Shown here in pieces: positions 24,448 through 41,292 of a DNA stretch of 47,498 nt (positions are counted from its first letter, which is position 1; each line of letters begins with the position of its first letter). This DNA is from a virus. Both the position numbers and the translations under genes were made by a program. The DNA lies in IMG/VR virus record IMGVR_UViG_3300022561_000016, positions 1 to 47,498 of that record; one strand, given 5' to 3'. The notes under the pieces were generated by a model that saw nothing but the letters and a program-made list of their open reading frames with translations, had not been told where the DNA came from and did not search any database.

Positions 24448-25887
24448 CTAATATGCGAGTCGGCTCGTGTCGAGCACGCCGTTGATCGCGCTGTCGAGTA
24501 TGAAAAACTGATCATTGCCGACCGGGTACACCTGCCAGTTGGTCAGCCACTGCGCCGCGCCGATGCTCTGGCTCATCGCGGCGATGCGCGCCACTTTCGC
24601 AATCGTGCTGCCCCCGCCCGGCGGTCGGCGCAGCACGGTGATCTTGTCATCGAACGTGCGGCTGAGTATTTGCGGCCACAGCGTCAGCGGTGCCAGATCG
24701 CCATTCAGCACGAAGGATTGCACGCGCATATACGGCTGCGCGTACAGAATCAGCAGGTACTGTGCGCGCGACAGCGCCTCGGCGTCGGTCGTGATTTGCA
24801 GATTGGTGATCTGTTTCGCACGCACGCCGTAGGTCGCCTGACTGGCGGCGTCATTCGCCACCTGAACGGTGCCGCCCGCGCGCGTGACCTCGGCGTGATT
24901 GATCAGCCGCGTGTCATCAAACGAAAACGGCACATCGACATACGGCAGTTCGCCCGTGACTGGCGCACTGTTGCCGTGCGATGCGGCGATACTGCCATAC
25001 GCTCCGCGCGTGCAGCCGGTCAGTGTCGGCGGAAAGAACGACGTGTTAATGCCGGTGTAGGCGATGAACTCGCTGTCGATCTGCACGGTGCCAATGGTAG
25101 GAAAGCCCGCAGCGCTATTGAGCAGGATACTCGTCGCGACAGCGGTATGCGCGCCGAACAGCGGCGTGGTGGCCGTGCTCGATGCATCGCCAAACAGCGC
25201 GAAATTGGTACTATTCCGCGCCGACCAATAGCGATCATGATAGACGGTGCGCCCGTCGTCTTCAATGAAAAACGTGCCGCCGTCCGCCGCCGCAATCGTT
25301 TGGATCGCCGGAAGCGCGGGCTGCGACGGATACAGCTGCGCCGGGATCTGCGTCGGGCTGTTGACCCCGGCGTCACGATCCGCAGCCGGCCAGCCGATCA
25401 CGTTGAGCACGTCGCTAATCACGTTGACCGGGTTGTTGTTGCCCGTCTCGTTCATCGTGAAGGTGGTGTAGTTTAATGCTTTGAACAGGTCAACCGCCGT
25501 CAGCCGCACCAGGTTCTGCGCGACCGCGCCGATACTCGGATCAAGCGGCACCCAGCTTTCCACGTAGCCGGTGAACAGATCGTAGACCACGCTGTTCCAG
25601 GTTGCGCGCACGTTCACACGCCGGGTCGGGATGACATTCGGCCAGTACGGGCTGGCGGCGTTATCGGGGTCGAAGCGCCGATCCCGATTGTCAAGCATGA
25701 ACGAACACGTCCCGGCCTGCATGGCGTCCAGCTCGAACTGCCGCCCGCGATTGATCGTGATCGGACTGCCGCCGGGATTGCCGTCCAGCCACACATAGGC
25801 CGAAATATCGACCCAGGTAAGGCCTGCGATTGCCGCGAATGGCGCATTGCCAAACGCGATCCTGACTTGGATGGTCGGTCGTGTCAT
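24448..25887 (-). CDS. Distal tail / minor tail protein
   Basis: Lies immediately after the tape measure with an ATGA overlap. 479 aa. Contains I.IDSEFIAYTG....LTGCTRGAYGS, a pattern seen in minor tail proteins. Confidence 0.65.
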   Translation of the reverse strand: MTRPTIQVRIAFGNAPFAAIAGLTWVDISAYVWLDGNPGGSPITINRGRQFELDAMQAGTCSFMLDNRDRRFDPDNAASPYWPNVIPTRRVNVRATWNSVVYDLFTGYVESWVPLDPSIGAVAQNLVRLTAVDLFKALNYTTFTMNETGNNNPVNVISDVLNVIGWPAADRDAGVNSPTQIPAQLYPSQPALPAIQTIAAADGGTFFIEDDGRTVYHDRYWSARNSTNFALFGDASSTATTPLFGAHTAVATSILLNSAAGFPTIGTVQIDSEFIAYTGINTSFFPPTLTGCTRGAYGSIAASHGNSAPVTGELPYVDVPFSFDDTRLINHAEVTRAGGTVQVANDAASQATYGVRAKQITNLQITTDAEALSRAQYLLILYAQPYMRVQSFVLNGDLAPLTLWPQILSRTFDDKITVLRRPPGGGSTIAKVARIAAMSQSIGAAQWLTNWQVYPVGNDQFFILDSAINGVLDTSRLAY

Positions 25888-28800
25888 CGGATGCCCGTGC
25901 CTCCGTTGCGCGCCTGCAATTGCAACAGCGCGGCCTGAATCGCCTGTGCGTTCGCCGCTGCGTCCAATCCGCCCGGAATATAGATCTGCACCCCGCCGTT
26001 GATCTGCACGCCCGACAGTCCGGCCCCGCGTTCGCCCGCGCCGCCGACCGATGGCGTGATGCCGCTGGGATTACTCAGCTGCGCCAGATAGGCCGCGAAC
26101 TGGCCTTGTGCGGCGGCGGGATTCACGCCGAACTCGCTGGCGATCAGCGCGTGGCGCTTGTCGGCCTCCTGGCCGGTGATCGCGCTCATTTTCCGCTGCG
26201 TGTCGGTGTAGGCCAGCAGCTGCTTGCCCAGCGCCGTGTCAAGCGTCCCCTGCTGCTTGGTGTAGCTGGTCAGCGCGCTCGCTTCCTGGCGTGCGAAGCT
26301 GGTATTTTCGCTCGCGAGCTGGCGGGCGTGCGCCGAGTCAGCGACCTTCTGCTGCTTGTCGAACGCGGCCTGCGCCTTCAGCTCGCCCGTATCAAAGGCG
26401 GTTTGCGCGTCGGTCAGCTGCTGCGCCAGCGCGGCCTGACGCTGCTGGCGATTGGTCGCGAGATGCTGCGCCTGTTTGGCCTCGCCGCGATTGTAGCCGT
26501 CGCTCTCGGCATTGAAGCTCTTTTGCAGGCTGGCGGCATCGGCCTGATAGCGCGTTTCGTCACTCGCGATCTGCTTGGCGTGCGTGTCCTGGAGCTTGGC
26601 GAGCTGGCTTGCGGTCACACGGTCGGCGGTCGCAAGCTGGCGCGCATAGGCGGCGCTGGCGGCACCTTCCGCATTGGCGTAGGCGCTATCTTGCGCGGCC
26701 TGCTGAGTCGCCAGCGTGGCCTGCTGCTTGGCGAGCTGTTTCAGCGCCTGGGCGTCCTGCTGGGCCAGTTGTGTCGCGGCCTGGGCGTCCTGTTTGGCCT
26801 GCTGCAACGCGGCCTGCTGCTCGGCGCGTGCCGCCGTCTGCGCGGCCTGCTCCAGCTGTTTGGCGAACGCCTTTTCGGCCTTTTCGGCCTGCCGATCATA
26901 GCTGGTTTGGGCCTTGGCTTCCTGTTTGGCGTAGCGCTCATCCTCGCTATCGATCTGCTTTTGAATGCTGGCCTTTTGCTTGGCATCGACCGCCGCGTGC
27001 AGCTGCGTTTGCAGGTCGCCCAGGCGGTCGTTATGATCGCCCGCACGCGTTTGCCGATCTTCCTGGAATTGCTCGCTATTGGTCTGCTGTGCGTCGGCGG
27101 CGCTCCTTTGCAGATCGGCGGTGCGCTGCGCGTATTGCTGCTCCCTGTCGGCGAGCTGGGCGGCGGCTTGCGTTTGCCGGTCACTAGCGCGCTCAGCGGC
27201 TTGGGTTTGCCGGTCGGCGGCGGCTTCGACGGCCTGGGTTTGCAGATCGGCCCCGCGCTGCACAAGTTGGCCGATCCGATCCTGATACGATTGCGCGGAC
27301 GATGCCTGCCGGTCATGCTCGCGCGTCTGCATGTCGGTCAATTGCTGCGCGGCCACCGTCGCCGCCTCCACGCGCCGGGCCTGATAGTCCTGCTCGTGCG
27401 CCACGTCGGTGGTTTGGCGCGCGGTCTGGAGGTCGCTGGCGCGGGTGTGCAGGTCGGCGATCTTGGCCTGCTGCTGTTCGGTCGCCGCCGCCTGCCGATC
27501 CTGTTCGGTGGCAAGCGCGTCGGTTTCGGCGCGTGCGGCGGTCGCCAGCGTGCTGCGCTGGCGCTCCTGGTAGCTCGCTTGCCGGTCGGCGTCGGCATCG
27601 CGGTAGCTTTGCTGCGCCGTCGCGCGGCCACCGAGCGCCGCCTGATCGATGCTGGTGAGCCGCGCCTGATGATCCCCGGCGCGCTGCTGTTCGGCGTCGG
27701 CAAATTGCGCCTGGCTGTTCGCCAGCTTTTCATACGCGGCCTGCCCGGTCACGCCGGTTTTGTCGAGTTCGGACTGATACTTGGTCAGCTGTTCGGTGCT
27801 GGCCTGAGTCGAGAGCGCCAACGCGGCCTGCGACTGCGCGGCATCGCCCCACGAGCCGCCGCCGCCGTTCGACATCGCTGCATTGGCATCCTTCGCCAGC
27901 GGCGCAAGCAGCCCGTATTGTCCGCCGAGCTGCCCTAGCTGGTTGAAAACGTCCAGCAGATAGCCGCCGCTCGCGAACTTGGCGAGCGTGTTCGTGCCGA
28001 GAATGTCACCGACATCGCTGGTGCCCATGCCGGGGATCTTGATGTTTTGGAGCGTCTGATAGGCATCCACCACTGGACGCACCACGCCGTAGACTGCCGC
28101 GATCCCGTCGTACCACTGCTGACCTTGGCGGATGATCTGCGGGAGTTCGTCGCGCACAACCGCGCCCAGCGCTGCGCCAATCGCCTCGATATTGGCCTTG
28201 CCTTCGGGCGAGTTGAGCGTATCAACGAGCTGCTGGAGGTACGGCTGCACCTCTTTAATCGATGCACCTAGGAGGTCGCGACTGCCGATCTTTTCCAGGT
28301 CTTGCAGGCTGTTCATCAGGCCCGATACGGTGCCTGCCTGCCGCAGCGCCGCGCCGCCGAAATCGTTCTCAAGCGAGTACGCGATCGCCTTGATTGCCTG
28401 ATCCGCCGGGATCATCCCGGCCTCGCGCAGCTTGACAATCTCTTCGGTCGATTTGCCGAACGCCTTGGATAGAATCTGATCAACGCTAACGCCCGCCAGC
28501 GCAAGCTCTCGAACCTCACGCCCGCTGATGTTGCCTGAGATCTCGACCTTGCCCAGCGCGGCCGCCACGCGGTTGAGGACTTCGGTGGTTTGCCCCGAAC
28601 CGGCGCTGAAGTCAACCAGGTCTTGCGTCAACCGCTTGGCGGTGATCGCGGTTTTGTCGGCGCTCTCGGACACAAAGCCGAACGCCTCGACCGTCCTGAA
28701 CGCGCTGGCGATCCCTGCCTCGTCAAACGGCGAATTAACGGCGAGTTGCTCGTTCCACTTCAGCAGCTCCTGCGCTTTGGGCGCGGCCTGCGCTAAGGCG

Positions 28801-29150
28801 TCGGCCATGCTCAACGTAGCGTCGGCATTCCGCAGCTCGCGCGCGAGCAGCGTATCCAGCGATAGGCCCAGCCGCTCATTTTCGGCATACGCGCCAACCG
28901 CGCCTTCGACAAAGCCCGCGACTGCCCGCGTGGCCTGTACCACCGCCTGGAAGGTCAGGAACTTGCCGAAGAAATCATCGACCGCGCCGCCTGACCCGCC
29001 GCCCGCGCCGCCTGACCCCAGCCCCTCGATCTTGTCTTGGATCAGCGCCAGCTGCTCCGACGTGCGCGCACTGAACTGCGCCAGCGTTTGATCCGCTGAC
29101 GAGGTATCAGCGGATACGACCGTCTTCAAGGATTCGGCATCAATCGACAT
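25884..29150 (-). CDS. Tape measure protein
   Basis: 1088 aa with a long Q/A/R/D coiled-coil middle and Gly-rich ends. It follows the G/GT chaperone. Confidence 0.9.
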   Translation of the reverse strand: MSIDAESLKTVVSADTSSADQTLAQFSARTSEQLALIQDKIEGLGSGGAGGGSGGAVDDFFGKFLTFQAVVQATRAVAGFVEGAVGAYAENERLGLSLDTLLARELRNADATLSMADALAQAAPKAQELLKWNEQLAVNSPFDEAGIASAFRTVEAFGFVSESADKTAITAKRLTQDLVDFSAGSGQTTEVLNRVAAALGKVEISGNISGREVRELALAGVSVDQILSKAFGKSTEEIVKLREAGMIPADQAIKAIAYSLENDFGGAALRQAGTVSGLMNSLQDLEKIGSRDLLGASIKEVQPYLQQLVDTLNSPEGKANIEAIGAALGAVVRDELPQIIRQGQQWYDGIAAVYGVVRPVVDAYQTLQNIKIPGMGTSDVGDILGTNTLAKFASGGYLLDVFNQLGQLGGQYGLLAPLAKDANAAMSNGGGGSWGDAAQSQAALALSTQASTEQLTKYQSELDKTGVTGQAAYEKLANSQAQFADAEQQRAGDHQARLTSIDQAALGGRATAQQSYRDADADRQASYQERQRSTLATAARAETDALATEQDRQAAATEQQQAKIADLHTRASDLQTARQTTDVAHEQDYQARRVEAATVAAQQLTDMQTREHDRQASSAQSYQDRIGQLVQRGADLQTQAVEAAADRQTQAAERASDRQTQAAAQLADREQQYAQRTADLQRSAADAQQTNSEQFQEDRQTRAGDHNDRLGDLQTQLHAAVDAKQKASIQKQIDSEDERYAKQEAKAQTSYDRQAEKAEKAFAKQLEQAAQTAARAEQQAALQQAKQDAQAATQLAQQDAQALKQLAKQQATLATQQAAQDSAYANAEGAASAAYARQLATADRVTASQLAKLQDTHAKQIASDETRYQADAASLQKSFNAESDGYNRGEAKQAQHLATNRQQRQAALAQQLTDAQTAFDTGELKAQAAFDKQQKVADSAHARQLASENTSFARQEASALTSYTKQQGTLDTALGKQLLAYTDTQRKMSAITGQEADKRHALIASEFGVNPAAAQGQFAAYLAQLSNPSGITPSVGGAGERGAGLSGVQINGGVQIYIPGGLDAAANAQAIQAALLQLQARNGGTGIR

Positions 29151-29866: not shown

Positions 29867-31162
29867 TTACAGCGCCGTCAGCGTATTTTGTAGTTGCACC
29901 CTGGTCGCATAGCCCGCCACCGGGTCGTGTACCCATTCGCCGCTGAAGGTATTGCCCAGCAGCGTGCCGTCCACGTCCTTGAAGTCGCTGATTTTGGTCA
30001 ACTGCACCGCCGTGTCGATCTGTAGCGAGTTGGACAGCACGCCCTCGATCAGCGGGCCGGTCGCGCTTACGCGCATCCATACGACCGTGTTGTTGCGGAG
30101 GTTCGCCAGCTGCGCCATGCCGATGTCGTCAGCGGCCAGATCGAGCGTGACATCGCCCTTCGGATCGGCCTCGACTGTGCCGCCGAAGCCCGCGCCAAAC
30201 GTCGGGTTCATCGGGAAGAACGGGTTGTCGCGATTGCTGATCTTCCAGGTGTACTGAAAGTCGCGCGTCAGGAACGGCGCGGCTCCCAAGTTGGCCTGCG
30301 TGGTTGCCAACTGCATACCAATCGTGACGGGCGAGATTGGAATAAGCGGCATCTGCGTTGCCAGCGGCGACAGGCGCGTGAGCAGCGACGTGCCGCCGGT
30401 TAGCGTGTCAGTGGTAACGATGGGACTAGGCAGCGTCGGGCTGGGAATGTTCGCTAAGGTGCCGGTGAACAGGATGCGCATCGGCAGGCTGGACAACGGC
30501 CCGCCGGTGACGATCACGTTGCCGGTGCCGACCGACACGAGCGCCGCAATTGCCGTCTGCACGGCGGAGGCGGTGGCGTTAAAAGCCAGCGCGCTCGTAG
30601 TGTTCGCGCCGATGGTGATCGTGAACGTCCCGGCGGTCACCGTGCCGAGAAACGAAAGCCACTTGACCTTATCATCGTACCCGGCCTGGCCGAGCATCGT
30701 CCCGGCGATCTTGACCACATCCTTGCGGTTGAAGGTCAAGCCGAACTCGGTGAACAGACAGTTGCGAACGTGATACGCCCGCACGGCATTGCTGCCCAGC
30801 TCCATCGAAAACGTGCGCTGACTGTCCGGCGCGGTGGTGCTGATCTGGTACGTCCATAGCCGACTCAGCGTGCCGCCGCCGGGCGTGGTGATCACCGGGT
30901 CGGTCAGCACGGAGGCGAGCGGGTAGACCATCTCGTTATAGGTGCCAATGCCGTCAACCTTGATGTCGGTCTGCTCCTTGATCAGCACTGCCGTCGTCGG
31001 GAACTTGTAGCCTTTCGGAGTGAACGTTTTGGCGGTCGGGTTCGGCGTGACGGTCACACTGTAGCCGCCGATGATGCGGGTCGTTTGCACCGTAGTGCCG
31101 GGCGTTGCAAGCGCTTCGACCCCGATCTGACTACCTTCAAAGACCATTGCGCGCTCTGGCAT
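29867..31162 (-). CDS. Major tail protein with inserted ~95-aa module
   Basis: The gene sits upstream of the chaperone pair. 431 aa. The insert spans aa 168-264 (nt 30371-30661). Confidence 0.65.
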   Translation of the reverse strand: MPERAMVFEGSQIGVEALATPGTTVQTTRIIGGYSVTVTPNPTAKTFTPKGYKFPTTAVLIKEQTDIKVDGIGTYNEMVYPLASVLTDPVITTPGGGTLSRLWTYQISTTAPDSQRTFSMELGSNAVRAYHVRNCLFTEFGLTFNRKDVVKIAGTMLGQAGYDDKVKWLSFLGTVTAGTFTITIGANTTSALAFNATASAVQTAIAALVSVGTGNVIVTGGPLSSLPMRILFTGTLANIPSPTLPSPIVTTDTLTGGTSLLTRLSPLATQMPLIPISPVTIGMQLATTQANLGAAPFLTRDFQYTWKISNRDNPFFPMNPTFGAGFGGTVEADPKGDVTLDLAADDIGMAQLANLRNNTVVWMRVSATGPLIEGVLSNSLQIDTAVQLTKISDFKDVDGTLLGNTFSGEWVHDPVAGYATRVQLQNTLTAL

Positions 31163-31174
31163 CGCAGTATCTCC

Positions 31175-31888
31175 TTATGCTTGCACATTGATATCATAGA
31201 TACCGCCCAGCTGGCGATATTGCACCCCGTTGGTGGCTTCGGTCAGGCGAAACGGGCGCTGACGCACGCAACTGACGATCCGCCCGCCGCCTTGCACGCT
31301 ATCAGCCGTTTGGGCGTGAATCAGCGCATCGACCCGATTAGCGATCTGCCGCAAGGTCGCGCTGTAGGTCTGCCCTTGCGCCATGCCCTTGATCAGATAC
31401 TGCGTGCCGACCATCACGCGGATCGGGCCGGTCGCAATCACATCAACCGCGCTCATGATCTGCGTGATGATGTAGGGAAATGGCACGCCCTGCGGCGCGA
31501 CATCGCTCCACACCCGCGCGCGCTGGCTGATACTGAGCAGCGCTCCCGGCCCGGTCAGCCCCGCTCCATCGCCCGTGATTGGCGCGAGATTGTTGGTGAG
31601 CGTGCCGACGAAGATCACCGTCCAGCCGGCCACCTCGCGATTGAACACCAGCGTTTGCTTCGTGCCGACCGTACTCAGCGCTTCGAGCGCCGCGCCCACG
31701 CTGCCCACGCCGATCACTGGCGCGCTGTAGGCAATCGGCGTCGTCGTTTGGCCCTGGTACGTCAGGGTGAACGTGCCGCCACTCGCAACGATGCCGATCT
31801 GCTGACATGGCGCAAGCGCGGCCAGCGTCAGATCGGCCCCGATCACGCTCGCCAGCCAGGTATCGACAATCGGCGTTTCGACACTCAC
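31175..31888 (-). CDS. Tail terminator / tail completion (DUF3168-like) protein with inserted ~95-aa module
   Basis: The C-terminal half VWSDVAPQGVPFPYIITQIMS...RQRPFRL fits the DUF3168 pattern. The insert spans aa 29-122 (nt 31523-31804). Confidence 0.55.
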   Translation of the reverse strand: MSVETPIVDTWLASVIGADLTLAALAPCQQIGIVASGGTFTLTYQGQTTTPIAYSAPVIGVGSVGAALEALSTVGTKQTLVFNREVAGWTVIFVGTLTNNLAPITGDGAGLTGPGALLSISQRARVWSDVAPQGVPFPYIITQIMSAVDVIATGPIRVMVGTQYLIKGMAQGQTYSATLRQIANRVDALIHAQTADSVQGGGRIVSCVRQRPFRLTEATNGVQYRQLGGIYDINVQA

Positions 31889-32328
31889 GAGTCGAGCAGC
31901 TTGGTCAGCGCGGCCCGGAACGGTGCGCGGTTCGATGCGGCGGCTTGGGTCATCGCGCCGTCGCCGGATCGCCGCTGCGTCCCATCGGGGCCGGTTTCGC
32001 CGCCATACTCATTGATCAGGCCATAGACCGCCCCGACCGCCACAATCGCGGAGTACGGATTCGGGCGCGCGACTTCGGGTAGCATCTGCGTGCCAGGATT
32101 GGCGGCCTGTACTGCCGCCGCTGCTTGCGGATAGGTGCTGCTGTTCGCGGTCACGACGTAGGCGCTGTTGACCTGTGCGCCGGTGTCGCGCCGCGCATTC
32201 AGCTGGTAATCGCGCTGCACATCGAACGCAGTTTTGCGGACAATCTGGCCGGCGCGCTGCCGCATCCGCCCGCGTAGCTCGTCAAAGCGGTTGAACTCGA
32301 TTCTGATCTTGACCTTGATACTGCCCAT
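31885..32328 (-). CDS. HK97 gp10-like neck protein
   Basis: FDELRGRMRQRAGQIVRKTAFDVQRDYQLNARRDTG resembles the gp10 family N-terminus. Confidence 0.6.
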   Translation of the reverse strand: MGSIKVKIRIEFNRFDELRGRMRQRAGQIVRKTAFDVQRDYQLNARRDTGAQVNSAYVVTANSSTYPQAAAAVQAANPGTQMLPEVARPNPYSAIVAVGAVYGLINEYGGETGPDGTQRRSGDGAMTQAAASNRAPFRAALTKLLDS

Positions 32329-32673
32329 TTAGCCTATCTCCACAGCCTGCACTTGCCGAATCAGCGCGGCATTGAGCGGATCGACAATCCCCTCGACCTG
32401 GAAGGTGCGACCCGCGATCACGATGCGGTCGGAGCTGCGCACGTCAGTCGCGTTCGGCATGTTGATGCGCCATGGGATGATCGTGCGCAGCTCGCCCGCG
32501 ACGATCACTTCTTGCGCCCCGCTGGCCGTCGCGCGGCACGGCACGTTCGTGGTGATCGTTTGCCAGTTGTCGTCGCCCGGATTGCGGGCAATCGTCGCCA
32601 TCTGCGTCCAGCTTTGCGCGAGCGATGCTAGCATGTCGGCGCGGTCGGCGGGCGAAAGAAAACCAAACATCAC
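32329..32673 (-). CDS. Head-tail adaptor / head closure protein (by position)
   Basis: 114 aa in the connector block. Confidence 0.5.
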   Translation of the reverse strand: MMFGFLSPADRADMLASLAQSWTQMATIARNPGDDNWQTITTNVPCRATASGAQEVIVAGELRTIIPWRINMPNATDVRSSDRIVIAGRTFQVEGIVDPLNAALIRQVQAVEIG

Positions 32674-32677
32674 GATC

Positions 32678-33124
32678 CTATTCCCGTCGCCGCGCGCGGT
32701 ACGGACTGCCTTGGTAGGCAGCGTCGTTCACGTCCGGCGGATAGGTCGGCGTCAGCGGCGCGGTGGTGGTGATCAGCCCGGCCACTCCGGCGCGGTTGCT
32801 GCGCGTGTTGCGCTCGACGCGCTCCAGCTCGCTTTGCACGTCGGCCCGCATGCTCAACAACGTTTTTGCCTTGTCACTCTGGCTGCGACTGTGATCGTTC
32901 GCGATGTTGTACGTTACTTGACCGCGAACGATCCCCAGCACAGCATCAATCGCACGCCGCTTGGTGTACAACTCCTGAAGCCGCGCCGAGATCTGCGCCT
33001 TATCGGTGTAGCTGGCCCACATCAGCGCGATATTCGCAGCCAGCACGCCGGTCGGCCACGCGACGGTGATCTCGTCGCCGACCTCCAGGATGATCAGCGC
33101 TTGGATGTCGGCGCTACTACTCAT
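32678..33124 (-). CDS. Head-tail connector protein (by position)
   Basis: 148 aa downstream of the capsid module. Confidence 0.45.
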   Translation of the reverse strand: MSSSADIQALIILEVGDEITVAWPTGVLAANIALMWASYTDKAQISARLQELYTKRRAIDAVLGIVRGQVTYNIANDHSRSQSDKAKTLLSMRADVQSELERVERNTRSNRAGVAGLITTTAPLTPTYPPDVNDAAYQGSPYRARRRE

Positions 33125-33396
33125 GGCGCGACCGGCGCATCTGCGACCGGCGCATCTGCGACCGGCGCATCTGCGACCGGCGCATCTGCGACCGGCGCGA
33201 CCTCCACCGGCGCGGCGGTTTCGACAATCGCGCCCAAGTCCAGCAGCCGCTGGACATTGACGCCGTTCAGGTCGGCGCTCGTGATCACGCTGCCCTGAAC
33301 ATGCGGGCCGACTGCGCCGTGTAGCACGGTGTAGAACGTCAGGATCGGCGGCGCGACGCTGGGCTTCGGTCGGGCTTCGAGTTTGTTGTCTGGCAT
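33121..33396 (-). CDS. Hypothetical protein with C-terminal (APVAD)n repeats
   Basis: ATG at 33396 after AAGGAG. 91 aa. The tail reads APVEVAPVADAPVADAPVADAPVADAPVAP. Confidence 0.55.
   Translation of the reverse strand: MPDNKLEARPKPSVAPPILTFYTVLHGAVGPHVQGSVITSADLNGVNVQRLLDLGAIVETAAPVEVAPVADAPVADAPVADAPVADAPVAP
33126..33205. repeat. 15-bp tandem repeat ACCGGCGCATCTGCG x4 plus degenerate flanks
   Basis: Perfect copies at 33131-33190, in frame (5 aa per unit). Confidence 0.9.
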
Positions 33397-33415
33397 CGGA
33401 TTGATCTCCTTATGG

Positions 33416-33443
33416 CATTCTGCGGGTCTAGACCCGCAGAATG
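33416..33443 (-). terminator. Perfect 28-bp palindrome / hairpin with the capsid gene stop codon in its loop
   Basis: CATTCTGCGGGTCTAGACCCGCAGAATG, with a 12-13 bp stem. It is followed directly by the SD of the next gene. Confidence 0.45.
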
Positions 33444-34456
33444 CAGATTGCAGCGGCGAAGAGCAGGGCTGGGCCTCCATTGTGCGTATCGAACACGGCA
33501 ATACTTGGTGCGTTGCCTTCGGCCTCCGCGCCGGTGTGGTTCGAGATGTACATATACGGCCCCGGCGCGAGCGTCGGGTTATTGGCGTTGCGGGTCATCA
33601 TGTACTTGGCGACTGGCTGACCGGCCGGCCGCTTGCCCGTGACCAACACGGTCGCGTCAGGGATGAACGGCGTGAAGAGGCCGGTTCCATCGGCCAGATA
33701 CCCCTCGTCGTAGATTCGGATCGTTGGCAGATCGTCGCCGCTGATGATGGTGTTAATCTGATCAAGGTTATTCGCGGTGCCCAGGCCCGCCGTGCGCCGC
33801 CCGTACAGGTCGGTGCTATTGCCGTTGGTGCGCAGACTGTTGTAGGTCTTGCGGTTCATCCATGCGGTCGCTTGCGCGCCGAGATTGACGCTATGCCCGC
33901 GCGCCAGCAGCTGCACGCCCGACAGGTCGGCCAGCGGCGTGGCGGTCGCGCTGGTGGCCCAGGGCACTAGCGCGGTGTACTGCTGGATCGTGTACGCGCC
34001 CTGGTGCGCCAGCGCGCCGTTCTTCGTCGTGACAAAGAATTGGCCGGTGCAGAGCAACGTCCAGCCGATCCACTCGATCCGGTCAAGCCGACGCTGGAGC
34101 AGCTTATCCTGTTTCTCGGCGATCAGATCCTGCACATTCACCGGGCTGGCGAACGTGCCGCGCTGCCGTCGCTCGGTCAGCTGAATCTCATCGATCATCT
34201 CGCCCTCGCCGTAGTAGCCGGGGCGCTCGATGTAGGACTTGGAGCCGGTCTGCTGGATGAGCGGCAATGCGCCGTTGATACCGCGCAGGTTCTGGAGGCC
34301 GGTGTAATTGTCCTGTTGTTCCCACATGATCACCGATGCGTCGGTGTCTTCCATCGGCATCAGCTCGAAGATCGGGCGATTCGATTCGAGACGCGGCAGC
34401 TTATCCTGCGCGATCTCGTTCAGTTCGGCGTTGGTCTGGTAGGTGAAAGTTGCCAT
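33428..34456 (-). CDS. Major capsid protein (lambda gpE-like family)
   Basis: 342 aa. The layout and motifs (N-terminus ...ELNEIAQDK, MIDEIQLTERRQRG, LLQRRLDRIEWIGWTLL) resemble Phage_cap_E. It follows a decoration gene. Confidence 0.8.
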   Translation of the reverse strand: MATFTYQTNAELNEIAQDKLPRLESNRPIFELMPMEDTDASVIMWEQQDNYTGLQNLRGINGALPLIQQTGSKSYIERPGYYGEGEMIDEIQLTERRQRGTFASPVNVQDLIAEKQDKLLQRRLDRIEWIGWTLLCTGQFFVTTKNGALAHQGAYTIQQYTALVPWATSATATPLADLSGVQLLARGHSVNLGAQATAWMNRKTYNSLRTNGNSTDLYGRRTAGLGTANNLDQINTIISGDDLPTIRIYDEGYLADGTGLFTPFIPDATVLVTGKRPAGQPVAKYMMTRNANNPTLAPGPYMYISNHTGAEAEGNAPSIAVFDTHNGGPALLFAAAICILRV

Positions 34457-34468
34457 GAAATTCTCCTA

Positions 34469-34523
34469 ATTTTGGATTTCGGACGTTAGATTTTGGATTG
34501 GAGGACATCCAAAATCCAAAATC
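34469..34523. repeat. AT-rich nested inverted repeats (ATTTTGGAT x2 / ATCCAAAAT x2) upstream of the capsid gene
   Basis: GATTTTGGAT (34489-34498) pairs with ATCCAAAATC (34507-34516). A second arm pair sits outside the first. Confidence 0.7.
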
Positions 34524-34540
34524 AGCAATCAAGCATGAAC

Positions 34541-35281
34541 CTAGCCCAGCCGCACGACGCCCGCCGCGAGCGTGCCGCTGACCAGTCGCCATTTCGCTGC
34601 GGTCAGCGCGTTGGCGTCCAGCCCGACCAGCAGGGCCGTGTCGAAGGTGCCCGCAAAATAGTACGGCGCGTCCTTGCGCACCTCGCCCCACTGATTGACT
34701 GCCGTAAGCGTTCCGAGATACACGTTGCCGGTCGCATCTACGAACATGTCATATTGTGCGATGCCATACGGCACTTGCGAGCCGTCGGAGTTACCGCTGG
34801 CGTAGGGTTTCAGCACGCCGGTCGCCGCGCCGCTGGTCGTGCGTGTCACGGTCGCGGTGCCGCCGGTCAAGAGCGCGGTGTTGGGAGTTAGTAGGCTCTG
34901 GCCTTTGCCCGCGTAGGCGGTGCCCGAAAACGTGATCACATACGGGCCGGTGCCGGTCACGCCCGCGCCCGCTGCGCCCAGCACGCCCGCTGCGTTCAGC
35001 GCCGCCGCAATGGTCGCGGCGACATCACCGAAGTTGAGACTGGCGGTGGTTTTTGCCACACCCGAAATCGGGTCGGTATAGGTCAGCGTATACGTGCCGC
35101 CGGTCGCGGTGATCGCAAGCGACTGGACTTCGTTCACGGCTGCCGTGACCGGCCCCAGCAGCGTGCCCTTTGGGAGCGTGCTGTTGGGCACGAAGTTTGA
35201 CACGAGCGTGACGGCCCCATCGAAATCATAGAGCGGATCGAGCCGGTTCGCGGCGTAGATATTCTGTGCGCTGATTGGCAT
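34541..35281 (-). CDS. Head decoration protein (gpD-like ends) with inserted ~95-aa module
   Basis: The position is between scaffold and capsid. The N- and C-terminal segments are decoration-like. The insert spans aa 51-149 (nt 34835-35131). Confidence 0.6.
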   Translation of the reverse strand: MPISAQNIYAANRLDPLYDFDGAVTLVSNFVPNSTLPKGTLLGPVTAAVNEVQSLAITATGGTYTLTYTDPISGVAKTTASLNFGDVAATIAAALNAAGVLGAAGAGVTGTGPYVITFSGTAYAGKGQSLLTPNTALLTGGTATVTRTTSGAATGVLKPYASGNSDGSQVPYGIAQYDMFVDATGNVYLGTLTAVNQWGEVRKDAPYYFAGTFDTALLVGLDANALTAAKWRLVSGTLAAGVVRLG

Positions 35282-35334: not shown

Positions 35335-36561
35335 CTAGTTGCCGTTTTTGAGCACATCGCGGCCCAGACCGGTCAGGCCCAGCAGTTCGGCGCGACGCTC
35401 CTTGCTCATCGGCTGCGCGGCGTCCGTCGCGCGACCGGGCTGCGCGGTCTGGTTGGCGAACACGGCAGCACTTTGCTCCGTTTTGATAAGCTCCTGAGTC
35501 AGCGTGTGCGCCGGTCGCGCGCTAAACATGGCCGTCAACTGCGCCACGCGGCTGCTGGTGTGGCCGTCGGCGAACGTGACCACGCCATGCGCGCCGTCGT
35601 CCTGCGCGGCCTGGGCAAACGCGGCGATGATGCTTTCGCGCTCGGCAGGTAGCGCCTTGTGCGCCGCGATCTGGTCGTCGGCGAAGTGCGTTGCGTCGGA
35701 CGTGATGCGGTCGGCGGTCGCCTTCACCAGCGCGGCCTTCAGGCGTGTCACCTCGGCGGACTCGCCGATCTGTGGCTCGCCCTGGAGCGCAAACGCCGCT
35801 GGGGTGAGTTCTGCGGCGGGCTTCGCTGCGCCGTTGAACAGCCAGTTGAGAAAGCCTTGTCGTTCCTGATCCATTGAAGACTCCTTATGCATAGTCGCCG
35901 CGCCAGCGCACACCGCGCCAGCTTTCACAATCGCCTCATGTGCGGCATCGAGGCTCTTTTGATCGAAAACGTTATTGCGCTTGCCAATGAACAGCGCAAG
36001 CTCGTCACTAAATGCTAGTTGTCCCATCGCGTTGCACGTTGCGCCGTGCTGGAGCGTGGTGTCGTGGATGGCTTGCAATCCGCTGGACTCGTGCCGACTG
36101 ATCATGGCGGCGGGGTCGTTACAGATTGCTCCGTGGCGCGCGGCCATATCATGCATGCTCTGATGAACGTCGTGCCCGTCCAGCGTGTCGTGGCGCGACG
36201 ATGAGAACGCGGCCATCATTGCGGCCTCAGACACGCGCGGGTTTTTTGCCAGCGCTAATCCAATGATCTGTTTCTGCGGCCCACGGCTCCAGGTCGTAGA
36301 AACGGGGATCGGCTGCTCAGGGAACAGGTCGTGCAGCCACTGCGGGACGCGGATGGCACCATGCAGCGTATCGCCGCGCAGCTCGACTTCGCTTAGTTCC
36401 CCCAGCTTGCCATCAAACACGCTGCCCTTGTGCTCGCTGTCAATCGGCACGGGCGCGAATGCGGCGATTGCATGCGTGGCTTCATCCGCGTTCAACGAAA
36501 ACGCTTTATCGGGGTAGCTGCCGATCTTGAAAATCGGCCCGCGTCGAGTGATCAGATCCAT
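35335..36561 (-). CDS. Mu gpI-like prohead protease / scaffold protein
   Basis: VPIDSEHKGSVFDGKLGELSEVELRGDTLHGAIRVPQWL matches the Mu-like I-protein pattern. It has a long helical C-terminus. Start taken at the ATG at 36561. Confidence 0.6.
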   Translation of the reverse strand: MDLITRRGPIFKIGSYPDKAFSLNADEATHAIAAFAPVPIDSEHKGSVFDGKLGELSEVELRGDTLHGAIRVPQWLHDLFPEQPIPVSTTWSRGPQKQIIGLALAKNPRVSEAAMMAAFSSSRHDTLDGHDVHQSMHDMAARHGAICNDPAAMISRHESSGLQAIHDTTLQHGATCNAMGQLAFSDELALFIGKRNNVFDQKSLDAAHEAIVKAGAVCAGAATMHKESSMDQERQGFLNWLFNGAAKPAAELTPAAFALQGEPQIGESAEVTRLKAALVKATADRITSDATHFADDQIAAHKALPAERESIIAAFAQAAQDDGAHGVVTFADGHTSSRVAQLTAMFSARPAHTLTQELIKTEQSAAVFANQTAQPGRATDAAQPMSKERRAELLGLTGLGRDVLKNGN

Positions 36562-37403
36562 GCCTCTGCTCCAATCGTGATACCGGGCGGGTCTGCTACG
36601 GTGAAATCGGCGATACTCAGACTCATAGCAACGCCCAGCTCCGCCCACGTTTTCGTTACCGGGATCGGCGCGCAGCGTCCGCCGACATGTTCGTCAAACG
36701 GCGCGGAAAGCGGGTAGCGCGTGCCGTTCTTGACAGCGCACACATCGCACGCCTTGTCGTCCGCGCTCCATTCCCATTGTTCAACCACGTCGCTATTCGC
36801 CCGGTAGTTTTCCAGCGCCGCAGACCGATATGCCGATAGCACCTCCGTCCGAGCGATAGTCAGCGCCCGCGTCCTTCCGCCGTCGAGCGCGTCCGCGAAC
36901 GTGCGGGCGATCTGCCGTGGGCCTGCGCCCGCCGCGATCCCGCGGATCAGCGCCTGCTTGACCGTCGCGGCGACCTCGGGGCCGAGTTTGGCGAGCAGGT
37001 TCTCCAGTGGCGAGCCGTCGAACGTGCGGCCAATCAGCGCGCTAATCGCCGCCGCGCGCGGGCTGTTCAGCGTGACCGCCACGCCTGCCGGTGCGCCAAT
37101 GCTCGCCGTGATCAGGGCGTGCGCGTGCTGGGTCGCCAGCTGGGCCGCGTCCTGCTGGGCGGCGCTGATCTGGATACTGGCCGCGTGGGCGAAGGCGGCG
37201 ATCTGGGTATCGATCTGGCTGATCAGCGATAGGATCCGCGCCTGACTGGTTGGCTTGCCCGCACTGAGCACGTCGTCAACGCCCGATTGCAGACGGGCCA
37301 CAACCTCGGCGTAATCGGCTTCGAGCGCACGCTGAAGCGCGGCCTCGTGCTGGAGCATGGCCGCGTCATGAAGCGGGAGTAGGTTGTTGGCAGATTCAGT
37401 CAT
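36552..37403 (-). CDS. Head morphogenesis protein (Mu F / SPP1 gp7 family)
   Basis: IARTEVLSAYRSAALENY...WEWSADDKACDVCAVKNGTRYPL. Confidence 0.8.
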   Translation of the reverse strand: MTESANNLLPLHDAAMLQHEAALQRALEADYAEVVARLQSGVDDVLSAGKPTSQARILSLISQIDTQIAAFAHAASIQISAAQQDAAQLATQHAHALITASIGAPAGVAVTLNSPRAAAISALIGRTFDGSPLENLLAKLGPEVAATVKQALIRGIAAGAGPRQIARTFADALDGGRTRALTIARTEVLSAYRSAALENYRANSDVVEQWEWSADDKACDVCAVKNGTRYPLSAPFDEHVGGRCAPIPVTKTWAELGVAMSLSIADFTVADPPGITIGAEAWI

Positions 37404-37955: not shown

Positions 37956-39437
37956 TCAAGCGGGTGTGGGATCTGCGGTTGCTGCATTGCTATCCTGCTG
38001 CGCTTTCGTTGCAATTCCGGTCGGTGGCGTGGGCGTTTGCGGCATGCCGGGGTCGCGCACGGGCAGCCCCATGAACGTGTCAAGTTCCGGGTACTGACTC
38101 GGATCGAGATATGCGGCCTTGGTGAGTGCCGCAACGGCGTTGGCGGTCGCGCCGAAATCTTGCTGTTCCACGTTGCCCAGACCCACTTTCGGCGTCAACT
38201 CCAGCGCGGCCTGCTCGCCAAAGTTGAAGCGAATCATTTGACGGAGCACGTCGCGGGTGAGCATGCGGGTGACCGCGCGTCGTCCCTGCCGAACCAGCGT
38301 AGTCAGCGCGTCCTGATGCACCGACGCCTGCGCGCGGCTGGCGTGCTGGCCTTCGCCGGTCGCCAGTGTTTGCGTCAGAATCGCCTTACTGATCTGGCGG
38401 TCGTATCCGTCAAACGCCTGGAGAAACGCGCGCCCCTCGCCCTGACTTTGCACGACGGTAACGGCAGAACCGCCCGCGAACGCCAAGGCCGCGCCGTTGC
38501 GCCATGCCGACAACGTATCGACCATAAGCTGCTCAGGCCAGATCAGCGGGCCGGGGATCAGGTTGCCCGCGCCGTCGGTCGGCGGCATCGCCTGCGCGCC
38601 TTCCGGCGTAAAACCAATCAGACCCGGCGAGGCGAACTGCGCCAGATACTTCAGGTATTCGGGCCATGTTTGCATTTTGTTAAACCAGGCCGTATTAGCC
38701 GGGCGCAAGATTGACGAGCCGCGCGGGTCGTTGTCCTTCGGGCGAAACGTGAGGATCGCAAACTTGGAGCGCGGCAAGATGTTATCAAGCTGGCCGGGAT
38801 CGGCAATCGCGAGAATTGTGCCAGCCTGCACGGGCGCGCCAACGCCAGGGATGCGCGCGACCAATCCTAGGACGTTCAGATAGGTGTCCACGACAAACGC
38901 GGTTGCGCGCCGTGGCTTGATTTTGATGCTGACTAGCTTCAAATGCTGCTTGCCGGTGTGCGTGCGGTCGTCATCCCAATTCAATTCGGCGACCTTGTGC
39001 CCATACGCGACCGCATCCAGCATGCCCCAGAGCGTGTCGTCCATGCTCGGATCGATGTCGTCTAGCACGCGCTCGCAGTACTCCAGGAGCAGCTTCGATT
39101 GAGCGTAGCCGTCGGCGTCCTTGTCAGAGACGCGCGGCGCGAGCGTGACGCCTTCTTCGAGCACCGACGCCTTGTAAATCGTGACACTCGCGTTGACCAC
39201 GGCGTCAAAGAGCATGCGCTCGTAGTAGTCGTCGCCAAAGTCGGCGGTCAGGTCGTCGAAAGCCCACGGCAGCGACCGCGCATAGTTGCTGTACCACGCC
39301 AGGCCGCTCCCGGCGACGTATTGGCGACGCGGGTCGGCGGTGACAACGCCGCTGGTGCCGGGGATCGGCGCGATCTGGCCGTTGGGACTGCCGGGCGTGT
39401 CGCCGGTAGTCACGGGCAGGGCGAGAGTGTTGGTCAT
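37956..39437 (-). CDS. Portal protein (Mu gp29 / DUF935-like)
   Basis: 493 aa, lying between the terminase region and the F-like gene. The acidic C-terminus and overall layout are typical. Confidence 0.8.
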   Translation of the reverse strand: MTNTLALPVTTGDTPGSPNGQIAPIPGTSGVVTADPRRQYVAGSGLAWYSNYARSLPWAFDDLTADFGDDYYERMLFDAVVNASVTIYKASVLEEGVTLAPRVSDKDADGYAQSKLLLEYCERVLDDIDPSMDDTLWGMLDAVAYGHKVAELNWDDDRTHTGKQHLKLVSIKIKPRRATAFVVDTYLNVLGLVARIPGVGAPVQAGTILAIADPGQLDNILPRSKFAILTFRPKDNDPRGSSILRPANTAWFNKMQTWPEYLKYLAQFASPGLIGFTPEGAQAMPPTDGAGNLIPGPLIWPEQLMVDTLSAWRNGAALAFAGGSAVTVVQSQGEGRAFLQAFDGYDRQISKAILTQTLATGEGQHASRAQASVHQDALTTLVRQGRRAVTRMLTRDVLRQMIRFNFGEQAALELTPKVGLGNVEQQDFGATANAVAALTKAAYLDPSQYPELDTFMGLPVRDPGMPQTPTPPTGIATKAQQDSNAATADPTPA

Positions 39438-39811
39438 TGCGGCAATTCCTCAGTATGCACGGCGATAAACGCGCGGGCGCGCTGCTCAGGTGTCGCGCGA
39501 ATGAGTAAGAAGCGGCCCGTGTACGTCAACGTATCGACGCCCGTAATCCGCTCAAGTGCGGCCATGTATTCGGGGATCGATCCCCGCCGCTCGATGGCAT
39601 CCTCCAGCAGCTTCGCGTCGAAAAGGTTACTACTTGCCGAAAAGGCATGCAGGTTGGCGAAATCGTCGGTCGCGCACGCGCCCCACTGCCGCCCATCCGC
39701 GTCGTACCAGTAGGCGGGTGATTCGTATCCTGCGCCTGCGTTAATCGCCCGTCTTGCGCCCTTGTGCCAGCCGAGCAGCGCAGCGCAGCGCTCATCAAGC
39801 TCTTTGCTCAT
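39434..39811 (-). CDS. Phage ABA-sandwich-domain-like protein
   Basis: ELDERCAALLGWHKG...YWYDADGRQW...FSASSNLFDAKLLEDAIERRG resembles Phage_ABA_S. ATGA overlap with the terL stop. Confidence 0.5.
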   Translation of the reverse strand: MSKELDERCAALLGWHKGARRAINAGAGYESPAYWYDADGRQWGACATDDFANLHAFSASSNLFDAKLLEDAIERRGSIPEYMAALERITGVDTLTYTGRFLLIRATPEQRARAFIAVHTEELPQ

Positions 39812-41292
39812 CGTAAACGTCCTCCAATCGGCTGCGGACTTGGGAAGCGCGCCGGGCCGCTGGCGGCACCGAACGGTCGGCCGGTCGCGGCGAGTCGATT
39901 GAAGCCGCCGCTCGATCCATCGACCTGATCGTCGTATTTTCCGCTCGGAAAGGATAACAGCTCGTTCAAATACGCCTCGTTCCACGCGCCGCGCACGAGC
40001 CGCACGTTGCCGCCGTTCCACTGTGAGGCGAACGGATCGGCGCGGGTCGCTTTGTCGCCAGTTTCGCGCTCGGTCGCAACCGTAAGGCCACTCAGCAGCC
40101 GCACGAACGCGCGCGCGCTATCCACACCGGCGCTGCCTGGGTCTTGCGGCAGCACGGTCGTGACCGGGCCGCGCAACGCATCGCGCTCGGCGGTTTCGCG
40201 AATGACCGCATCGCGCTCATCGGTGGCCCAGCGCCCGCGCGTCACGTCCTCAATTGTGTACAGATTGTCGCTTTTGCTCATGAGCACACCCGCCGAAAAG
40301 TCACCCGTATTGTCGGACGCGGCCACGTCCCAGCGCCGTACTCGCGTTGCCTGGGCGGGCGCGGCGTCCACAAAGCCCGCCTTGCCCGCCTTGAACATAC
40401 TGCCCTCGGCGGGGTAGGGCGTGCCCTGATACAGGGCCTCGAACGCCGTCCCCATGCTGGCGCGCAAGGCCTCCAGGTACGCGATGCTGTAGCGCGGCGA
40501 AAGCGGCTGTCCAACCGCGCGCCCGCTCGGATCATGCGGCAACCCATCCGCAATCGCGGGAAAGCGCATGATCTCCCATCCGCCTTGCTCGATCAGCATT
40601 CCCGCAAAGTCTCCTTCCCACCATCTGTGGAACATGACTACGATGTTCGTATCAGCGTTCAATCGGCTAAGGACCACCTGCTGCCACCAGTCGCGCAGCA
40701 TGACGTTGACCGCTGGACTGCGCGCCTCTTGTGCGTTCTTGTATGGGTCGTCGAGAATCAGTGTGTCAACGCCTAGGCCAGTGAACCCCGTTCCCATGCC
40801 CAGCGCCTTGAAGCTCGGATTAGCGTCGCGGATCGCGGTGCGCACCGTCGTTGACCACTCGTCGGCGGGCGCGCGATCCGGCACGCGAGCGGCGAAGCGA
40901 CGCTGATAGTCGGCGTCATGCATCAAGTCTAGATTGACCTTGCTGAAGCGCTCGGCGTGGCTCACGTTATAGCACGCGACACGAATCCGCAAATCAGGCC
41001 GCACACCCAGCGCGTAGGCCGGGTAGCGCTGCGAGACTAAGATCGACTTCCCCATTTGCGGCGGGCCGTGGATCAGCAGCCGCTGGCCGCGCTGGCTGAC
41101 CATTGCCTCCAGCCGGTCGCAGATGAGGCGCTGCCAGCCTTCGAGCCGAAACGCGGTCGTGCTTTCGACGTAGGCGATGAACGGCGGGGGCGCGGCGGCG
41201 CTGTTCGCCGCACGCACGCGCACAGGGAGCAGCCGCGAGTAGTCGAGGCGCTTGTGGCTATTCGCTATCATCGTCAATCCTATCGATCCCAA
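39808..41292 (-). CDS. terL: Terminase large subunit
   Basis: Walker A LIHGPPQMGKS, Walker B TLILDDP, and a C-terminal nuclease-like region. The start may be 41271. Confidence 0.9.
   Translation of the reverse strand: MGSIGLTMIANSHKRLDYSRLLPVRVRAANSAAAPPPFIAYVESTTAFRLEGWQRLICDRLEAMVSQRGQRLLIHGPPQMGKSILVSQRYPAYALGVRPDLRIRVACYNVSHAERFSKVNLDLMHDADYQRRFAARVPDRAPADEWSTTVRTAIRDANPSFKALGMGTGFTGLGVDTLILDDPYKNAQEARSPAVNVMLRDWWQQVVLSRLNADTNIVVMFHRWWEGDFAGMLIEQGGWEIMRFPAIADGLPHDPSGRAVGQPLSPRYSIAYLEALRASMGTAFEALYQGTPYPAEGSMFKAGKAGFVDAAPAQATRVRRWDVAASDNTGDFSAGVLMSKSDNLYTIEDVTRGRWATDERDAVIRETAERDALRGPVTTVLPQDPGSAGVDSARAFVRLLSGLTVATERETGDKATRADPFASQWNGGNVRLVRGAWNEAYLNELLSFPSGKYDDQVDGSSGGFNRLAATGRPFGAASGPARFPSPQPIGGRLR

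Follow-up and report, generated by a model that had tools for sequence, protein, structure and literature searches.

An accessory domain of the Bxb1 type inserted into the head decoration, tail completion and major tail tube proteins of a metagenomic siphophage

The stretch of DNA analyzed here, referred to as the window (IMG/VR virus record IMGVR_UViG_3300022561_000016, positions 1 to 47,498), is a siphophage genome of 47,498 nt. Three genes of its minus-strand late operon, encoding otherwise unrelated virion proteins, share one module of ~95-103 amino acids (aa), with a single copy in each carrier: a head decoration protein with similarity to gpD of phage lambda, a tail completion/terminator protein with similarity to SPP1 gp17, and the major tail tube protein (Table 1). 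We show that this module is an independently folding domain located at permissive sites in the three virion proteins and maintained by selection, and that its sequence and predicted fold make it a homolog of the C-terminal extension (CTE) and CTE-like domains of mycobacteriophage Bxb1. The late operon starts with the large terminase, portal and Mu-F-like minor head protein genes, followed by those for a scaffold/protease-like protein, the decoration protein and an E-type major capsid protein. Then come genes encoding connector proteins, the tail completion protein and the tail tube protein, and the operon ends with a putative chaperone, the tape measure protein, and distal tail and fibre proteins.

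Table 1. Module copies, carrier genes and other features of the late operon discussed in the text.
Feature	Position (nt)	Strand	Product length (aa)	Remarks
Module copy 1	34826..35137	(-)		Decoration protein aa 49-152; HMM score 71.8 bits; hhalign 99.6% and 98.8%
Module copy 2	31523..31810	(-)		Tail completion protein aa 27-122; HMM score 97 bits; hhalign 99.1% and 98.8%
Module copy 3	30359..30667	(-)		Major tail protein aa 166-268; AlphaFold model; Foldseek matches to Bxb1 and actinophage proteins
Head decoration protein (carrier of copy 1)	34541..35281	(-)	246	Lambda gpD-like core with one inserted module
Tail completion/terminator-like protein (carrier of copy 2)	31175..31888	(-)	237	One module inserted near the N-terminus
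Major tail tube protein (carrier of copy 3)	29867..31162	(-)	431	Two-domain tube fold with one module between the halves
Large terminase	39808..41292	(-)
Portal	37956..39437	(-)
Mu-F-like minor head protein	36552..37403	(-)
Scaffold/protease-like protein	35335..36648	(-)
Major capsid protein	33428..34456	(-)	342	Pfam PF03864 Phage_cap_E, E 8e-12; phrog_29 major head protein, E 4e-17
Small ORF with repeat at its end	33121..33501	(-)		Between the major capsid and connector genes
15-nt tandem repeat	33128..33198			4.7 perfect copies, 100% identity
Tape measure protein	25884..29150	(-)	1088

The initial annotation, made from the DNA letters alone, had described the same module in three virion proteins, and this description was confirmed. 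The three minus-strand open reading frames (ORFs) exist, the amino acid ranges that it gave for the inserts map exactly onto its nucleotide ranges, and the module boundaries obtained in our analysis are slightly wider (Table 1). When the full carrier proteins were compared pairwise by BLASTP, each alignment was restricted to the modules (decoration and tail tube protein, E 1.9e-5; tail completion and tail tube protein, E 8e-5; decoration and tail completion protein, E 1.8e-4). For profile comparison, homologs of each carrier were gathered separately and the module columns were cut out. The hhalign comparison of these module-only profiles, which the initial annotation had proposed as a check, related the tail tube and decoration copies with a probability of 99.6% (E 6.7e-24), the tail tube and tail completion copies with 99.1% (E 1.9e-18), and the decoration and tail completion copies with 98.8% (E 7.1e-17). 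In addition, a module profile built from 20 sequences (alignment A4) was searched as a hidden Markov model (HMM) against all six reading frames of the window. No fourth copy was found at E < 0.01, so that the window holds exactly three, and the major capsid protein gave no match to the module HMM.

It could be argued that the resemblance is compositional, reflecting β-strands rich in Thr, Gly and Ala, or that the segments are integral parts of their own families, in which case there would be no shared mobile module. The segments are indeed rich in these residues, and the raw pairwise identities among the three copies of the window are just 30-35%. However, such an explanation has to face profile-profile E-values of 7e-17 to 7e-24, the fact that all three segments match the same solved Bxb1 domains, a confident fold prediction that retrieves Bxb1 chains, and the presence of homologs devoid of the insert in all three carrier families (all described below). 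On these four lines of evidence we consider it refuted, and its remaining probability very close to nil.

To identify the module, its profile was compared with the sequences of the PDB. The best match was the Bxb1 "Tail tip cage gp23" (9d93_Ma, E 3.2e-44), with three to four tandem copies, followed by the C-terminus of the Bxb1 major capsid protein (9d9w_Aa, E 4.4e-10) and that of the Bxb1 tail tube protein gp19 (9d93_Ja, E 2.2e-5). The profiles of the three carrier families each retrieved the same Bxb1 chains independently: that of the decoration family (A2) reaches gp23 and the capsid CTE via the region of copy 1, and that of the tail completion family (A3) reaches the Bxb1 CTE domains via the region of copy 2. 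The AlphaFold model of the isolated copy 3 (pLDDT 85.3, pTM 0.79) is compact, with the order β-β-α-β-β-β-β and one helix of 9 residues; as modelled, the module is an α/β domain with a single helix and is not Ig-like. A Foldseek search of the PDB with this model returned, as its top 11 matches, gp23, capsid and tail tube chains of Bxb1 and one chain of phage Patience (TMq 0.55-0.71). The Bxb1 chains scored a TMq of 0.62-0.71, with the capsid chain 9d9w_Aa at 0.69-0.71 and a root-mean-square deviation of 2.2 Å; next after Bxb1 came the Patience chain (8giu_1) and then the sheath of cyanophage A-1(L), and there was no significant non-viral match in the PDB. In BFVD, the model was best matched by tail proteins, major and minor, from phages of Mycobacterium, Microbacterium, Gordonia and Corynebacterium (TMq up to 0.87), and the Patience minor capsid protein was also matched. 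The module segment is matched by PHROG families with the annotations major tail protein, tail sheath and minor tail protein, and no Pfam model covers it. A relationship to the Ig family found no support either in Pfam (no match at E ≤ 1) or in Foldseek (no significant match). Cerato-platanin, URO-D and other weak matches in repeat-rich carriers were discarded as noise, since they lie at or below threshold and have no significant stretches.

The head decoration gene immediately precedes the major capsid gene. Its product has no Pfam match of its own. Six relatives of 136-143 aa (P0077, P0078, P0083, P0085, P0087, and P0091) carry PF02924 (HDPD, lambda gpD) and match the window protein at E 5e-23 to 4e-10; they align over both flanks of the module and show a clean gap across aa ~49-152, which places the insertion site after the N-terminal ~48 residues. 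These alignments support homology of the decoration core to the lambda gpD-like PF02924 proteins. The site accepts varied cargo: other relatives carry either two to three tandem modules or one module and another domain (P0079, P0086, P0090, and P0065, P0066, P0088). In some of the decoration relatives an extra domain of ~110 aa precedes the C-terminal core, and P0065 has Pfam Big_7 on record. In three further relatives (P0070, P0071, and P0062) the module shares 73-81% of its residues with the window copy and the core only 39-55%, the extreme being P0070 with 79% for the module against 39% for the core. This pattern suggests recombinational mosaicism, in which the module, or the N-terminal part of the protein, moves between diverged decoration genes.

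The tail completion protein was tentatively assigned to its family on three grounds, namely a sub-threshold match to PF11367 (Tail_completion_gp17; aa 116-218, E 1.5e-4; score 22.3 bits, cut-off 24.5 bits), the presence of PF11367 in relatives (P0114, P0116, and P0118), and gene order; hence its designation as terminator-like. A relative of 149 aa that is 56% identical (P0124) is devoid of the segment aa ~27-122, and the proteins found at the same position in five loci of more distant phages (L001, L004, L002, L005, and L006) are module-free and 139-147 aa long, with PF11367 on record for those of L001 and L004. Insertion thus followed the N-terminal ~26 residues.

The tail tube gene is flanked by the tail completion gene on one side and by the chaperone and tape measure genes on the other. 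The core of its product matches no Pfam family, and its only PHROG matches fall on the inserted module; the full protein was therefore modelled. The AlphaFold model (pLDDT 89.7, pTM 0.85) has as its top Foldseek match the major tail protein of phage SH-Ab15497 (8xan_A, E 1.3e-11, TMt 0.77), along with the tail tube proteins of P74-26 (8ed0_A, E 2.9e-11, TMt 0.68) and of T5 (pb6) and DT57C (E 5.5e-10 to 1.3e-9). The two halves of the predicted tube fold correspond to aa 1-165 and aa 270-431, and the module fills the junction between them. In eight relatives (327-346 aa) both flanks can be aligned, and a clean gap falls on aa ~166-270. A 512-aa relative (P0029) carries, besides the junction copy, a second module after the position equivalent to aa ~97. 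The core of the window protein thus shares the two-domain fold of the P74-26 tail tube protein (8ED0), T5 pb6 and the SH-Ab15497 protein (8XAN), whereas the interdomain junction that is occupied by the module in the window protein is empty in those tubes. T5 pb6 has a C-terminal Ig-like domain. The P74-26 protein is a fusion of two tube domains and forms trimeric, pseudo-hexameric rings (PMC10034513), and by analogy the two-domain type predicts trimeric rather than hexameric tail rings in the window phage.

Because each carrier family has relatives that are devoid of exactly that segment, the three segments are, on sequence comparison, true insertions. The initial annotation had proposed that one homologous domain was grafted into three otherwise unrelated proteins whose flanks are ordinary family cores, and it had named as grounds against this a segment integral to, and universal in, each family. 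The grafting stands, with relatives without the segment in all three families, and so does the reading of the flanks, given the PF02924 relatives, the PF11367 relatives and the two-domain tube fold. In contrast, the domain, which the initial annotation did not recognize as a named one, is not new: the modelling and structure search that the initial annotation had suggested retrieved the Bxb1 chains (9D93 and 9D9W), to which it is homologous in sequence and fold. The domain also occurs on other virion proteins (decoration, capsid, major and minor tail, and sheath proteins). The likening of the module to the Ig-like display domains of other phages is reasonable for its mode of use but fails for its fold, which is α/β.

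Throughout the clade of the window phage, to core identities as low as about 55-65%, all three copies have stayed intact. On contig L007, a relative with an overall identity of 58-72% keeps all three inserts, as do all closer relatives. At larger distances, the relatives on L004-L006 have the module in the tail protein and none in the tail completion protein (139-147 aa), and others have neither of these two inserts; gains and losses therefore occurred independently in each gene. The L004-L006 relatives, with a tail tube insert and a plain tail completion protein, also led us to reject the idea that the three inserts always travel together. A recent duplication within the window genome was rejected too, since the copies are 30-35% identical to one another and each is closer to modules of other, unrelated genomes (44-48% identity). 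The copies must therefore be old or have been acquired independently. Across the clade, the divergence of the module tracks that of the core, being slightly faster among close relatives (module versus core identities of, for example, 80 vs 89%, 75 vs 84%, and 74 vs 86%) and slower at long range. Since module identity follows core identity in this way, the sequences indicate that the module is under purifying selection.

The sharing of the CTE domain between head and tail proteins has already been described in Bxb1 (PMC8704799; PMC13252515), where it is carried by the capsid protein gp14, the tail tube protein gp19 and, as repeats, gp23 (PDB 9D93, 9D94, 9D9L, 9D9W, and 9D9X; PMC8704799; PMC13252515). 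In both the window phage and Bxb1, one domain of ~90-100 aa recurs within a single phage on the head, on the tail tube and on one more virion component, and close relatives of the carrier proteins are devoid of it. Unlike the C-terminal extensions of Bxb1, the window copies are all internal (aa 49-152 of 246, 27-122 of 237, and 166-268 of 431). It should be noted that Bxb1 gp23 also carries internal copies, so that C-terminal placement is a property of the CTE name and not of the family. The carriers differ as well, being a gpD-like decoration protein instead of the capsid protein, a tail completion protein instead of gp23, and a tube protein of the two-domain type. Moreover, the copies within one genome are 30-35% identical in the window and 47% in Bxb1, and the window phage, unlike Bxb1, has no detectable DNA similarity to GenBank phages.

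A second point of comparison is provided by the Ig-like domains of phages (I-set, FN3, and BIG2). These are non-essential, as the module would be, and like it they occur on head and tail proteins and are patchily distributed among relatives; they are displayed in hundreds of copies and have been proposed to mediate weak adhesion. They differ from the module in being all-β sandwiches, as opposed to an α/β fold with one helix. A family-wide survey of Ig-like domains on phage virion proteins was reportedly made by Fraser et al. in 2006. An example of shared use is given by the ~70-aa extensions common to the capsid and tail subunits of LeBron and Wildcat (PMC3029335). There is thus precedent, in Bxb1 and, for Ig-like domains, in LeBron and Wildcat, for one accessory domain that recurs on head, tail tube and another virion component. 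What is modestly new in the window is the internal position of the insertion sites, a neck protein as carrier, a site at the boundary of the two halves of a duplicated tube protein, and the occurrence in a phage lineage without DNA similarity to GenBank phages.

To define the extent of the family, we performed an exhaustive HMM search of 1.84 billion cluster representatives (50% identity). The module HMM matched 17,355 proteins at E ≤ 1e-3, 9,210 at E ≤ 1e-10 and 1,344 at E ≤ 1e-30. Arrays reach up to 45 tandem copies in a protein of 7,591 aa, and Planctomycetaceae are among the carriers (P0130 and P0131). In addition, genomes were scanned, one per species, with a pattern derived from a narrow alignment (A5), which yielded 238 confirmed places in two groups. 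The first comprises Actinomycetota, apparently at (pro)phage loci; the second, from Planctomycetota, Acidobacteriota and other phyla, consists of large carriers (1,500-4,000 aa) that have RHS repeats or Calx-beta as well. In four Planctomycetota loci (Gemmataceae and Tepidisphaerales; L024 2701-9039, L037 1981-8940, L045 184-8988, and L028 4543-9009) the module occurs in RHS-repeat proteins of 1,500-2,900 aa, in one of which Calx-beta accompanies the module and the RHS repeats.

The actinobacterial loci often carry the module on two proteins a few kb apart, one of them a head decoration protein of ~245 aa (phrog_3583 or a weak PF02924 match) or a major capsid protein, and the other a major tail protein; in these proteins the module is N-terminal, internal or C-terminal. 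The window phage is thus similar to these (pro)phages of Streptomyces, Embleya, Amycolatopsis, Nocardia and others (L009-L083) in having the module on the head and the major tail protein of one locus; on the head side, theirs lies inside a decoration protein or ends a major capsid protein. No copy was found in a tail completion protein at the L009-L083 loci. The two copies within one actinobacterial locus are typically 55-68% identical, compared with 30-35% in the window, which on sequence similarity suggests recent exchange between genes in the actinobacterial genomes. In many Streptomyces assemblies, the module-bearing decoration protein is encoded on contigs of ~87-100 kb, one of which is annotated as a 92.6-kb plasmid (CP042280.1); these contigs may represent a family of plasmid-like prophages (L009, L013, L015, L029, L041, L048, L054, L056, L057, L060, L064, L072, L074, L080, L082, and L083).

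The affiliation of the window phage itself was examined with several searches. The carrier region has no DNA match among GenBank phages (megablast), the only match of the tail protein to GenBank phages (tblastn) is the module region in a minor tail protein of Mycobacterium phage Eaglepride, and a scan of genome contigs with the whole tail protein as query found no relative. The closest relatives are all metagenomic. Full-length but distant relatives of the tail and decoration proteins are encoded on contigs of metagenome-assembled genomes (MAGs) binned to different phyla and labelled Mycobacterium, Actinomycetota and Pyrinomonadaceae, which are the sole hint of a host range and too loose for a host call. 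They include tail tube relatives with the module at the same site in a MAG labelled uncultured Mycobacterium sp. (L075 5443-6792, 33% identity) and in two Pyrinomonadaceae MAGs (L021 and L018, 27-28% identity), and a decoration protein relative, again with the module at the same site, in an Actinomycetota MAG (L026 5821-6582, 35% identity).

Two other features of the late operon are worth recording. The 15-nt tandem repeat (Table 1) encodes ~5 PVADA units at the C-terminal end of the product of the small ORF in which it lies, and this product could be a small head protein with a variable repeat length. The tape measure protein shows an extreme enrichment in Ala, Gln, Asp and Arg and long runs of low complexity, and its gene produces the strongest AT skew of the window (-0.40 at 26-28 kb).

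As for the function of the module, we favor, with moderate confidence, the view that this CTE-family domain is an outward-facing and dispensable accessory on three virion proteins of the siphophage, most likely involved in weak multivalent adhesion. The modules would be dispensable for assembly and would point away from the particle at the head surface, the neck ring and the tail tube. By analogy with lambda gpD-type trimers and with a hexameric terminator, there may be ~400 copies on the head and 6 at the neck; the tail would add 3 per ring, if its rings are trimeric as in P74-26. A generic exposed domain of this kind could confer weak multivalent adhesion to the host envelope or to matrix polymers. 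Adhesion is preferred because of the analogy with Ig-like phage domains and the use of the module as tandem repeats in giant extracellular bacterial proteins. In Bxb1, truncation of the capsid extension, or of the capsid and tail tube extensions together, leaves a viable phage, and the extensions are external to the shell (PMC8704799).

Several points weigh against an adhesive role. No binding activity is known for any member of the family, and the Bxb1 study gives no function for the CTE (PMC8704799). The positions that hardly vary in the A4 alignment are occupied by Gly, Thr, Ala, Leu and Phe, which look like fold determinants, and no conserved polar patch or ligand site was seen in the module alignment. 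The outward orientation in the window phage is one that we infer by analogy. Furthermore, the tight packing of the capsid copies around hexamers in Bxb1 and the tail-tip cage formed by the gp23 copies (PMC8704799; PMC13252515) suggest a structural rather than an adhesive role.

This last observation leads to the main rival explanation, structural reinforcement, in which contacts between subunits would cement the lattice of the capsid as well as the neck and tail tube and thereby contribute to particle stability, without binding to anything external. It agrees with Bxb1, where the C-terminal domains of the capsid protein form distinct, tightly packed assemblies on both hexamers and pentamers and are not replaceable by foreign peptides (PMC8704799), and where the barrel or cage at the tail tip owes its shape to the CTE-like domains of gp23 (PMC13252515); the head carrier in the window is itself a cement protein of the gpD type. 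However, reinforcement does not fit easily with the viability of the Bxb1 deletions, with the insert-less relatives of all three carriers, or with proteins outside the virion that hold the domain in long tandem arrays, a setting in which lattice contacts play no part. On balance we regard it as rather unlikely, although it is the strongest competitor of adhesion.

The antibody response to Bxb1 raises another possibility, namely that the module is a decoy or shield, an exposed, variable and dispensable layer that diverts antibodies, proteases or other attack from essential surfaces. The Bxb1 extensions dominate the antibody response, these antibodies neutralize only mildly, and the idea of an immune decoy was raised by the authors of that work (PMC8704799). 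The slightly greater variability of the module than of the core among close relatives of the window phage, noted above, would agree with this. However, the window phage and its relatives come from environmental metagenomes, where antibodies are irrelevant, and over longer distances the cores have changed more than the module, a poor fit with a fast-evolving decoy. We consider this explanation improbable, clearly more so than reinforcement.

Returning to adhesion, a broader proposal can be made, which we advance tentatively and regard as doubtful: that the module belongs to a huge extracellular family, as yet absent from curated libraries, that is present in all parts of tailed phages and in giant surface or RHS-type proteins of planctomycetes and acidobacteria, whose general job is multivalent binding of polymers. 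If this were the case, its deployment on head, neck and tail would make the whole particle, and not just the tail tip, sticky to the host surface.

The findings indicate that the Bxb1-type domain is neither peculiar to actinobacteriophages nor limited to C-terminal extensions, and that it is a freely shuffled insertion module, for which a cement protein, a neck protein and the boundary between the two halves of a duplicated tube protein can all serve as landing sites. A curated model of the Pfam type would annotate many thousands of segments that are currently "hypothetical". The insertion sites also mark positions in gpD-like, terminator and tube proteins that tolerate a domain of ~100 aa, which is useful for phage display engineering. 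Finally, three old and divergent copies have been kept together in one lineage, which argues for a selected function of the module in this phage.

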